From Escherichia coli (GTDB lineage: Bacteria; Pseudomonadota; Gammaproteobacteria; Enterobacterales; Enterobacteriaceae), in the NCBI RefSeq assembly GCF_044647545.1, contig NZ_CP172818.1: DNA of 64,000 nucleotides, one strand, 5' to 3'. The notes beneath the pieces were generated by a model. The model worked only from the letters and a program-made list of their open reading frames with translations, did no database searches and was not told the DNA's origin. This document shows, piece after piece, positions 157 through 1,712 of this stretch; within the stretch, counting starts at the first letter, position 1, and every line of letters begins with the position of its first letter. The translations under genes and the position numbers were made by a program.

Positions 157-654
157 CTACATCTGATATTTTTTATCTCTTAAAGATTCATAAATCCGTT
201 GACAAGTCACTCCTGCGATGTAGCGTTTGTCAGCAATTTCAGCATAAAGCTGAGCTTCTGCTGCAATATCTCCGAGCATGTTGGTGAGCATTCCTTCGGC
301 GGCTTTGGTTGTTTTGCCTCTGACGGCAGCGGCAAGATTTGCGGTATGCTGCGCTGCGTCAAGGCGTATGGCATATTTTGTTGCTTCGGCACGCAGCTGG
401 TTAACACTATCAGACAGATCAGCAGCCCTGGCAGAAATTTCAGCGGCTTTCTGTTGTGCATCTTTAACAGCCTCATCACGGGATATACTTCGCCCCTGTT
501 CAATTATTCGAGCAGCAAATTGGACATTTACCTCTTGAGATAATTCGGCAGCATCACGCTCCGCCCATTTTTTTTGCCATCCTCTGTCGCTCCAGACATT
601 ACCTACGACAAATCCTACCAACACGAGCAAAATCACCGTGAATATCTGATTCAC
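157..654 (-). CDS. rzpQ: Rz-like inner-membrane spanin (i-spanin) of prophage lysis cassette
   Basis: 165 aa ORF with N-terminal hydrophobic segment, coiled-coil-like A/Q/R-rich body, immediately downstream of endolysin on same strand; out-of-frame lipoprotein gene embedded. Confidence 0.8.
207..461 (-). CDS. rzoQ: Rz1-like outer-membrane lipoprotein spanin (o-spanin), embedded out of frame within rzpQ
   Basis: ORF in alternate frame inside rzpQ; signal peptide ending in lipobox LTSC, proline-rich mature part; start chosen at MHNRKPL (84 aa) is my inference. Confidence 0.6.
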
Positions 655-1184
655 TGTTCTATCCCCCAGCAGGTTAATGCACTCTCCTGGTCACGACGAA
701 TAACCTGACCGTAACAATTATTTGAACGAATGCGGCAATCACGTCCACCGTCCTTTATCCACCAGCGAATCGCCTCGCATGCGCCTTTACGATCACCGGC
801 ATTAAGCCGCTTATAAAACGTCGACGGAAAACACTTACCAGGGCCAATGTTATAGGGACAGAATGACGCGATACCGGCTTTCTGTGGCTCGGTCAGTGGA
901 ACTTTTATATTGCGCTCCACCCATGCCAGCGCCTTATCACGCTCAATGGCGTTGACCTGGTCGCATTTTTCCTTCGACAGTTTCATATTGGGAAAAACGT
1001 TTTTTCCATCCACCACTGTGGCACCCCGACAGATGGTCCATATGCCAGAACCATCGCGGTATGCCATTGTGTGGTTACCTTCTTTTTCGTCCAGAAACTG
1101 GTCAAGTATCTGAGGAGCAGATGCGCCAGCACCAATCAGCGCCAGAACGGCAGCCGACAGGCCGTATCTGATTTTTGTGTTCAT
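651..1184 (-). CDS. rrrQ: Prophage lysozyme / SAR-type endolysin
   Basis: 177 aa ORF, N-terminal hydrophobic signal-anchor-like segment, position between holin-side genes and spanins; matches phage 21-type R endolysin family as recalled. Confidence 0.85.
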
Positions 1185-1492
1185 AGATATTTATGATGAG
1201 GACGCTCGTGCTTATTGGCAGGATTTTCAATCTTAAAGGAGTACTGATGCTGCAGATAAGACTCAACTTTTTCTGACAATTTTTCTGCTACTTCCAGGAA
1301 GACTTGCCGGACGCTCATTCTGGCTGCTGCCTCATAAAACTCCAGCGCAGCTCCTTCAACACGGTCCATGGCGACATCCAGGCCAAAAATTTCACCGTCA
1401 AAGCGTTCTTTGTCCTGTAAGGCTACAGTTACCGTAACTTTATTCTCAAAATTACGGACTCCTTTCACAACCAGTTCATAGTATTGAGTCAT
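1181..1492 (-). CDS. ydfR: Prophage protein of unknown function (DUF1327 family)
   Basis: 103 aa ORF between holin and endolysin, 4-nt overlap with rrrQ; K-12 Qin gene order. Confidence 0.65.
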   Translation of the reverse strand: MTQYYELVVKGVRNFENKVTVTVALQDKERFDGEIFGLDVAMDRVEGAALEFYEAAARMSVRQVFLEVAEKLSEKVESYLQHQYSFKIENPANKHERPHHKYL

Positions 1493-1496
1493 TGGA

Positions 1497-1712
1497 TTAC
1501 TCTCCTCTCGCAGCCTTACGCCTGTCTTCTTTAATCTTGAAATAAAGATTTGTCAGGTACGTCAGCAGGCCAAATACCAGGCTACCCAGCACACCTATTG
1601 CTGCCCACTGTGAGGGCGTGACTTTATCGAGCAGCTGTAAAAACCAGTAGCCAGCACTGCCTGCGGAGGTGCCGTAGGCAATGCCTGTTGAAATTTTGTC
1701 CATGGATTTCAT
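1497..1712 (-). CDS. essQ: Phage 21 S-like pinholin (class II holin) with dual-start motif
   Basis: 71 aa from MKSMDK...; MKSM dual-start (holin/antiholin) motif, two hydrophobic segments, charged C-terminus; near-identical to S21 as recalled. Six-frame ORF extends upstream to 1790 but start at 1712 fits. Confidence 0.8.

Follow-up and report, generated by a model that had tools for sequence, protein, structure and literature searches.

The pinholins of the type encoded by gene S of phage 21 (S21) form heptameric pinholes of about 2 nm, which depolarise the membrane and do not release a cytoplasmic endolysin. Two Escherichia coli prophages, Qin and DLP-12, carry intact lysis cassettes (PMC10448788), and the pathway in which pinholins act together with signal-anchor-release (SAR) endolysins has been reviewed (PMC9636201). 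Here we describe such a cassette at positions 157-1712 of a 64,000-nucleotide (nt) stretch of E. coli contig NZ_CP172818.1; this whole stretch is referred to as the window, and all coordinates below are given in its numbering. We hold with high confidence that the sequence is the lysis cassette in the late operon of a lambdoid prophage of the Qin type, comprising a predicted pinholin, SAR endolysin and two-component spanin and capable of lysis. The cassette is read from the minus strand and contains the following genes, given with their lengths in amino acids (aa):

1497-1712, minus strand: essQ, 71 aa, beginning MKSMDK; class II holin (pinholin) with a dual start
1181-1492, minus strand: ydfR, 103 aa; DUF1327 protein, encoded between the holin and endolysin genes
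651-1184, minus strand: rrrQ, 177 aa; muramidase of the T4-lysozyme family with a SAR-type N-terminal segment
157-654, minus strand: rzpQ, 165 aa, GTG start; i-spanin (inner-membrane subunit)
207-461, minus strand: rzoQ, 84 aa; o-spanin (outer-membrane lipoprotein), wholly within rzpQ in another frame

All five open reading frames (ORFs) are uninterrupted. The stop codon of ydfR overlaps the start codon of rrrQ in the sequence ATGA, that of rrrQ overlaps the start of rzpQ in GTGA, and a gap of 4 nt separates essQ from ydfR; overlaps and short gaps of this kind are the usual signature of translational coupling, which we predict for the cassette. Four of the products matched Pfam families far beyond chance expectation: EssQ matched PF04971 'P21 holin S' at 5.5e-36 (the score cutoff for this family being 26 bits), RrrQ matched the lysozyme family PF00959 at 6e-24, RzpQ matched DUF2514 at 4e-38, and YdfR matched DUF1327 (PF07041) at 9e-51. 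The PHROGs labels were holin for EssQ, unknown function for YdfR, endolysin for RrrQ, and Rz-like spanin for both RzpQ and RzoQ.

The capacity of the cassette for lysis can be judged from its relatives. Positions 1-1739 are 100% identical to phage mEp460_ev081, and also to a full-length lambdoid prophage located at the same rspB site in strain FDAARGOS_497. The phage has only one lysis cassette, which is base for base that of the window. Phages with the 'ev' suffix were obtained as plaques from infant faecal viromes, twice plaque-purified and amplified by confluent lysis (PMC6969025), and mEp460_ev081 is considered a functional temperate phage (PMC10448788). We compared the cassette with those of this and four other isolated phages, all with complete genomes that include head and tail genes, and found DNA identities of 100% for mEp460_ev081, 97.8% for HannyBb, 94.2% for Tritos, 94.4% for PhiR42_1 and 92.8% for 2H10. 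In all five phages, as well as in the Qin prophage of E. coli K-12, the ORFs are equal in length to those of the window and contain no internal stop. Insertions and deletions relative to K-12 were found only in the 5' leader (1722-1732) and none in coding DNA. An earlier note on this DNA had called the cassette intact-looking with uninterrupted ORFs, had suggested that it may still be lytic, and had named frameshifts or nonsense codons relative to functional homologues as evidence to the contrary; the comparison with the five phages and K-12 revealed neither, and the suggestion of lytic potential is upheld by the match to the sole lysis cassette of a plaque-purified phage.

EssQ and S21 (UniProt HOLIN_BPP21) align without gaps and are identical at 65 of 71 positions (92%). 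The dual start M1-K2-S3-M4 is the same in both proteins, as is the entire N-terminal sequence MKSMDK, with the two start codons of essQ located at 1712-1710 (M1) and 1703-1701 (M4). By analogy, initiation at M1 would yield a 71-aa antiholin form and initiation at M4 a 68-aa holin form, a dual start being defined by an antiholin that carries an extra N-terminal positive charge (PMC9636201). The first transmembrane domain (TMD1) spans residues 7-25 and consists to 63% of Gly, Ala, Ser or Thr. The second, TMD2, spans residues 36-56, has a Kyte-Doolittle hydropathy (KD) of 2.1, and retains G40, S44 and G48; the G40xxxS44xxxG48 face is presumably the S21 pinholin motif. EssQ thus has two TMDs of which the first is weakly hydrophobic and SAR-like. 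The ratio of nonsynonymous to synonymous differences (pN/pS) of essQ relative to K-12, Tritos and 2H10 is 0.12, indicating purifying selection.

The translation signals of essQ lie at the edge of the segment shared with mEp460_ev081:

1713-1739, minus strand: essQ ribosome-binding region, GGAGGTGA, 5 nt before ATG1

Identity of 100% to the phage ends with this stretch. A 9-bp hairpin can be formed here, with the Shine-Dalgarno sequence in its 3' arm. In lambda S, the choice between the two starts is controlled by the 'sdi' hairpin, and we considered a regulatory hairpin of this type over the essQ Shine-Dalgarno sequence; we rejected it because the fold was no better than that of shuffled sequences (z -0.67).

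The endolysin RrrQ aligns over residues 9-174 with full-length R21, the endolysin of phage 21 (PDB 3HDE/3HDF), and with RrrD of DLP12 (4ZPU), the alignment including the anchor. Identity to R21 is 33%, and the E35-D44-T50 triad is found in the same positions (E-8-D-5-T); together with the PF00959 match, this gives RrrQ the glycoside hydrolase 24, or T4-lysozyme, fold assignment and its catalytic triad. At the N-terminus, K4 and R6 are followed by a segment (residues 8-23) that contains 69% Gly, Ala, Ser or Thr and is less hydrophobic (KD15 1.9) than the TMD of RzpQ (3.0), and then by Pro24. There are cysteines at positions 52, 74, 109, 118, 136, 150, 157 and 172 and none within residues 1-51. 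The SAR segment accordingly lacks the cysteine characteristic of P1 Lyz-type endolysins, which are activated by disulfide isomerisation, and the absence of cysteine from the anchor therefore places RrrQ with the R21 type. Among the cysteines, the pairs C109/C118 and C150/C157 lie on either side of short insertions and might provide additional structural disulfides. The pN/pS of rrrQ is 0.02.

The N-terminus of RrrQ is also organised like a signal peptide (n, h and c regions), its A-x-A sequence (A21-S22-A23) directly preceding Pro24, and can be read as belonging to a conventionally secreted endolysin that is cut after A21-S22-A23 in the course of Sec export, in which case the timing of lysis would not depend on release triggered by the pinholin. 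A proline at position +1 blocks signal peptidase I, and Pro24 occupies this position. In addition, the content of Gly, Ala, Ser and Thr in the h-region is typical of SAR segments, and this region aligns with the SAR domain of R21 in 3HDE. Secretion also fits poorly with a partner protein of the S21 pinholin type, which forms holes too narrow for a soluble endolysin and is usually paired with SAR endolysins (PMC9636201). We consider a cleaved signal peptide very unlikely and treat RrrQ as a probable SAR endolysin.

RzpQ has a TMD at residues 4-20, with a KD peak of 3.0 at residues 4-18, and a single cysteine, Cys151. An AlphaFold2 (AF2) model predicted helices at residues 24-54, 59-110 and 117-163, the last two joined by a short linker; it came from a single-sequence run with a mean predicted confidence (pLDDT) of 62 and is only indicative. 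With modest confidence, two long helices and a linker may correspond to the layout of lambda Rz. In PHROGs, the 'Rz-like spanin' families matched were phrog_312 for RzpQ (4e-58) and phrog_11621 for RzoQ (2e-8). RzoQ has the lipobox L20-T-S-C23 followed by Val24 (and no Asp) at +2, and its mature form of 62 aa contains 9 prolines as well as Cys58 and Cys62. The lipobox consensus for spanins is [LVI][ASTVI][GAS]C, and periplasmic cysteines that can form intermolecular disulfides are a further criterion (PMC6139136); such cysteines are present in both subunits, C151 in RzpQ and C58 and C62 in RzoQ. The two proteins thus combine a TMD and a helical periplasmic domain with a lipoprotein from a nested gene, as is found in embedded i-/o-spanin pairs. 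In the DNA that the two genes share, comparison with Tritos and K-12 revealed 7 substitutions in RzpQ and 1 in mature RzoQ, an indication that the nested frame is a genuine gene under constraint; rzoQ is also annotated at the matching position in MG1655. RzpQ gave no match to PF03245 (Phage_lysis, the Rz family of lambda and phage 21) at E<=0.01 and matched DUF2514 only. From their sequences, RzpQ and RzoQ appear to be functional equivalents of Rz/Rz1 of phage 21 and lambda, and not homologues. These results agree with the description of the cassette in the earlier note, which had recognized an essQ gene with the MKSM motif of the phage 21 S pinholin, a lysozyme with a SAR-like N-terminus, and equivalents of Rz/Rz1; the last term proves apt in its literal sense, given the LTSC lipobox and nested genes on the one hand and the DUF2514 assignment on the other.

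The remaining protein, YdfR, has neither a TMD nor a signal peptide, and its gene is predicted to be translationally coupled to those of the holin and endolysin. The family is narrow, with 257 matches, and wherever a source name includes an organism, it is Escherichia or Shigella. Its members share a conserved N-terminal part of about 77 amino acids and have variable tails. An AF2 model based on an alignment of 18 sequences was unusable (pLDDT 48), and neither the names of homologues nor PHROGs or NCBIfam supplied a functional clue. In phage 2H10, the slot of ydfR between holin and endolysin is occupied by an unrelated ORF of 183 aa (3175-3726 in coordinates of the 2H10 locus), and the S-R junction therefore behaves as a variable slot for morons. 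YdfR could act on lysis timing, either as a cytoplasmic antiholin or as a chaperone of holin or endolysin; that it represents a new timing factor for S21-type pinholin/SAR-endolysin cassettes, or else that the intact cassette is kept by host selection (considered below), strikes us as improbable.

Expression of a lambdoid late operon involves the antiterminator Q, the late promoter pR' and the terminator tR'. Candidates for all three are found about 1.85 kb upstream of the cassette, and a further terminator lies within the interval:

3617-4369, minus strand: Q antiterminator of the ydfT/quuQ type, 250 aa, full length (PF03589, 9.5e-54)
3542-3585, minus strand: candidate pR', identified by reading the sequence itself from 32 nt after the stop codon of Q
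3488-3511 (3481 including the T-run), minus strand: candidate tR', hairpin CCCGCT-GATG-AGCGGG followed by TTTTGTGCTTT
2166-2185, minus strand: strong intrinsic terminator downstream of cspB, between pR' and essQ

Q has the same length in K-12, PhiR42_1 and 2H10. Many apparently complete prophages specify exactly the same protein, with DNA that is only about 96% identical. In prophages with the identical Q, the lysis cassette under its control is another one, with a holin of the lambda S type (PF05106), and the combination of the same Q with different cassettes therefore indicates that Q-pR' modules and lysis cassettes reassort freely. The candidate pR' consists of a -35 element TTGCAT (3585-3580), a 17-nt spacer, a -10 element TAGGAT (3562-3557) and, 6 nt further on, the pause element AACGATGGG (3550-3542). 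The candidate tR' follows about 65 nt downstream of the putative transcription start. We take this arrangement, TTGCAT-17-TAGGAT-6-AACGATGGG plus hairpin, to match in its layout the pR', sigma70-dependent pause element and tR' of lambda. The pR' block is kept in 2H10, PhiR42_1, HannyBb, Tritos and K-12, with TAAAAT and TAAGAT as variants of the -10 element, and in phage SfV a 'terminator' is annotated after Q at the corresponding place. By sequence, therefore, the locus has a Q gene, a pR' with a pause element and a terminator as found in Q-dependent lambdoid late operons, and the upstream Q-dependent late promoter postulated in the earlier note can plausibly be placed at about 3585-3542, next to an intact Q. 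A perfect inverted repeat, GTTAGGA-GAA-TCCTAAC, covers the -10 element and the initial transcribed region (3548-3564). This repeat is specific to the TAGGAT allele, which occurs also in CP080260.1, and is absent from the TAAAAT allele of K-12 and PhiR42_1.

The interval between pR' and essQ contains cspF, cspB and ynfU, and late transcripts would have to cross the cspB terminator (2185-2166) to reach essQ. The same three genes are annotated between Q and S in PhiR42_1, which has the gene order Q-cspF-cspB-ynfU-S-ydfR-R-rzpQ, and 2H10 matches the whole stretch at 96%. Both of these phages match the window over the entire distance from Q to S; Tritos, 2H10 and HannyBb have the backbone Q-cspB-S-R-rzpQ with fewer of these genes annotated. 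The presence of the interval genes in isolated phages therefore indicates a normal late leader and not decay. Two further features lie within the interval. A cspA-type thermoregulator leader of cspB (2451-2843, minus strand) was found by Rfam at the gathering score, inside the leader of the late operon, and ynfU (1933-2103, plus strand) is a 56-aa zinc-ribbon ORF (PF23499, 3.5e-31) that runs opposite to the late operon and is conserved in PhiR42_1.

The prophage that surrounds the cassette is degraded. Positions 2-8875 are collinear with MG1655 Qin at about 97% identity, segments with dicF-dicB-ydfD-ydfE', an insertion sequence (IS) remnant and intQ' also match, and the combination of synteny next to rspB, a truncated integrase and the IS remnant identifies a defective prophage of the Qin type. 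Compared with K-12 and FDAARGOS_497, ydfU (4383-5432, minus strand, DUF968) has a 1-bp deletion at about 4666 that causes a frameshift after approximately residue 255 and removes the C-terminal CxxC/HNH-like part; in this strain, then, ydfU is a pseudogene. The YdaT-like ydfX is cut short at about 8484, at the very point where homology to the FDAARGOS_497 prophage resumes. No replication genes are found between dicC and Q in the window; a relBE toxin-antitoxin pair, ydfV and flxA (6473-6999, minus strand) sit where the FDAARGOS_497 prophage has its replication genes. At 12240-14212, a remnant of an IS3/IS2-family transposase (rve ORF 12369-12917) has taken the place of the 3' end of exo, of xis and of the 5' end of int, leaving a truncated exonuclease, no xis, and an integrase of 264 aa (13418-14212) compared with 426 aa in FDAARGOS_497. 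This IS/int junction is not covered to 80% or more in any complete genome of the collection. The small RNA DicF is encoded at 10623-10674 (plus strand; Rfam, gathering score). The label of defective prophage used in the earlier note is thus borne out for the arm that the window contains, with the regulatory and integration genes; the arm with the structural genes is situated left of position 1.

Several points weigh against reading the cassette as fully capable of lysis. EssQ differs from S21 by the substitutions W27L, Q30K, S32T, L47F, F49L and R61K, all six of which are present in the working phage mEp460_ev081. The proline at +1 is our only ground for expecting the anchor of RrrQ to escape cleavage after A-S-A and to be released. 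The plaques formed by mEp460_ev081 prove the function of holin and endolysin and not that of the spanin, because spanins are dispensable without high divalent cations. The -10 element TAGGAT is a 4/6 match, compared with TAAAAT in most relatives. Finally, deletion of rrrQ or of the essQ orthologue in MG1655 had no peptidoglycan or vesicle phenotype under enrofloxacin, with transcripts up 9- to 18-fold (PMC12287860). The lack of phenotype of these deletions therefore indicates that the cassette contributes little in the chromosome; this evidence concerns relevance in situ, not lytic capacity.

The last two points, along with the decay of the surrounding prophage (the frameshifted ydfU, the truncated YdaT-like gene and exo, the missing xis and replication genes, and an integrase cut to 264 aa next to the IS remnant), could also signify a silent relic, in which the ORFs are intact but the cassette cannot lyse its host, either because Q or the late promoter is dead or because the chromosomal context blocks expression through silencing by nucleoid-associated proteins, terminators or the weak -10 element. 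As a corollary, the genes would drift neutrally and be merely young. This proposal concerns expression and not coding capacity, and a working phage has coding DNA and a ribosome-binding site with 100% identity to those of the cassette. A full-length Q is encoded, the same protein as in apparently complete prophages, and the TAGGAT allele itself occurs in the apparently complete prophage of CP080260.1. Neutral drift is also at odds with pN/pS values well below 1. We regard a silent relic as very unlikely and retain the interpretation of the locus as a lysis-capable cassette.

The distribution of sequence identity bears on how the cassette came to be intact. A sharp mosaic junction is present at 1739/1740, 27 nt upstream of the essQ start, and beyond it, as far as about 8875, the sequence resembles K-12 Qin at approximately 97% identity. 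The position of this junction suggests a recent recombination that may have brought in the whole lysis cassette. The best match of a complete E. coli genome in the collection to positions 1-2400 was 98.5%. The host background is ST648-like and not K-12: at 40-46 kb the chromosomal sequence has 100% identity to strains of the ST648 type, FDAARGOS_497 among them. Two origins were considered and rejected. The window does not represent K-12 MG1655 itself, since BLAST against NC_000913.3 gave only about 97% identity, and acquisition of the mEp460_ev081 cassette from K-12 Qin during propagation was dismissed as sole origin because the K-12 cassette differs and the full prophage of FDAARGOS_497 is identical.

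Intactness might instead reflect domestication, with the cassette being kept by host selection (for release of vesicles or DNA, biofilm matrix, or altruistic lysis under stress) and not only by phage ancestry and recombination. Qin-type cassettes are widespread, occurring in 1609 of 5426 complete E. coli genomes (at least 80% of a 2.4-kb query covered), and both essQ and rrrQ are under strong purifying selection. For DLP12, effects of the lysis genes on vesicles and on peptidoglycan have been described (PMC12287860), as has their activity in lambda (PMC3945230), and rrrQ is induced about 9-fold by enrofloxacin (PMC12287860). The Qin-side deletions, however, were without phenotype in the same study (PMC12287860), and low pN/pS is equally expected from selection within the phage gene pool. 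Both the sharp junction at 1739 and the complete (100%) match to a circulating phage point to recent exchange with active phages as the cause of intactness. Domestication is in our judgement unlikely, and we favour the recent arrival of a phage-derived, lysis-capable cassette.

By analogy with the characterized systems, the following pathway may be proposed. Q (3617-4369) would modify RNA polymerase paused just past pR' (about 3585-3542), and the modified polymerase would cross tR' (3511-3488), the morons cspF, cspB and ynfU, and the cspB terminator into essQ. Translation of essQ from M1 would give the antiholin, with its extra Lys2, and from M4 the pinholin, the resulting S71 and S68 forms setting the timing of lysis; YdfR would be translated along with the other products of the cassette. 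TMD1 of EssQ is expected to exit the membrane, and TMD2 to oligomerise through its G40xxxS44xxxG48 face into pinholes that collapse the proton-motive force. RrrQ, exported by Sec, would be kept inactive in the inner membrane by its Gly/Ala/Ser-rich anchor until depolarisation frees it, upon which it would refold and cut peptidoglycan by means of E35, D44 and T50. After loss of the wall, RzpQ in the inner membrane and the outer-membrane lipoprotein RzoQ, together bridging the periplasm, would disrupt the outer membrane. In its host the cassette is presumably silent under normal conditions, because the prophage is degraded and Q would not be expressed.

The cassette is already annotated and of a textbook kind, and the finding, though correct, is known. 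Beyond correct annotation little is at stake: a degraded prophage of the Qin type can keep a fully competent lysis module, which fits the view of defective prophages as stores of functional lytic genes that are swapped with active phages (PMC3945230). As a practical consequence, such strains would be expected to die if Q or the late operon were de-silenced.

Among described systems, the Qin prophage of K-12 MG1655 resembles the locus most closely. Its genes essQ-ydfR-rrrQ-rzpQ/rzoQ (b1556-b1553, b4689) have the same order and lengths, including the embedded rzoQ, and the neighbours ynfU, cspB, cspF, ydfT/Q, ydfU, rem, hokD, relBE, dicC/dicA, DicF, dicB, ydfD, an IS remnant and a truncated int are shared. 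The DNA is approximately 97% identical, with a pS of 0.41 for essQ, and the proteins differ at 6 positions in EssQ, 3 in YdfR, 1 in RrrQ, 17 in RzpQ and 4 in RzoQ. TMD1 of EssQ in the window is exactly that of S21, whereas TMD1 in K-12 differs at 6 residues. The ydfU gene is intact in K-12 and frameshifted in the window, and the ydfE'-IS2E-intQ' region of K-12 is the same kind of scar as that at IS/int in the window but is not the same in sequence.

Phage 21 shares with the locus a holin with the MKSM dual start, two TMDs and G40/S44/G48, as well as an endolysin of the same fold family with the E35/D44/T50 positions and a Cys-free, Gly/Ala-rich N-terminal anchor. R21 has four cysteines in the aligned part compared with the eight periplasmic cysteines of RrrQ, which has four extra ones (109, 118, 150, 157) and a 7-residue insertion. 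The window differs further in the presence of ydfR between S and R and in having a DUF2514 spanin instead of the Rz family of lambda and phage 21. The comparison with phage 21 proposed in the earlier note thus yields a closely related S, a distant R with its triad aligned, and a spanin of a different family.

The DLP12 cassette, essD-rrrD-rzpD/rzoD, likewise lies in a defective prophage of K-12 with an intact S21-type holin and SAR endolysin. RrrD is nearly R21, with two differences over about 159 aligned positions, and its structure 4ZPU is matched by RrrQ at 2e-16. R and Rz of DLP12 function when recombined into lambda (PMC3945230). DLP12 differs from the locus in its lambda-type Rz, the lack of ydfR and its chromosomal site. 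Lambda Rz/Rz1 has the same embedded architecture as the spanin genes of the window, with a TMD and two helices joined by a linker in one subunit, a small proline-rich lipoprotein as the other, and cysteines in both; there is no detectable sequence homology, and mature RzoQ is 62 aa compared with 40 aa for Rz1. The closest known system is thus essQ-rzoQ of K-12 Qin, and S and R of phage 21 are the mechanistic paradigm.

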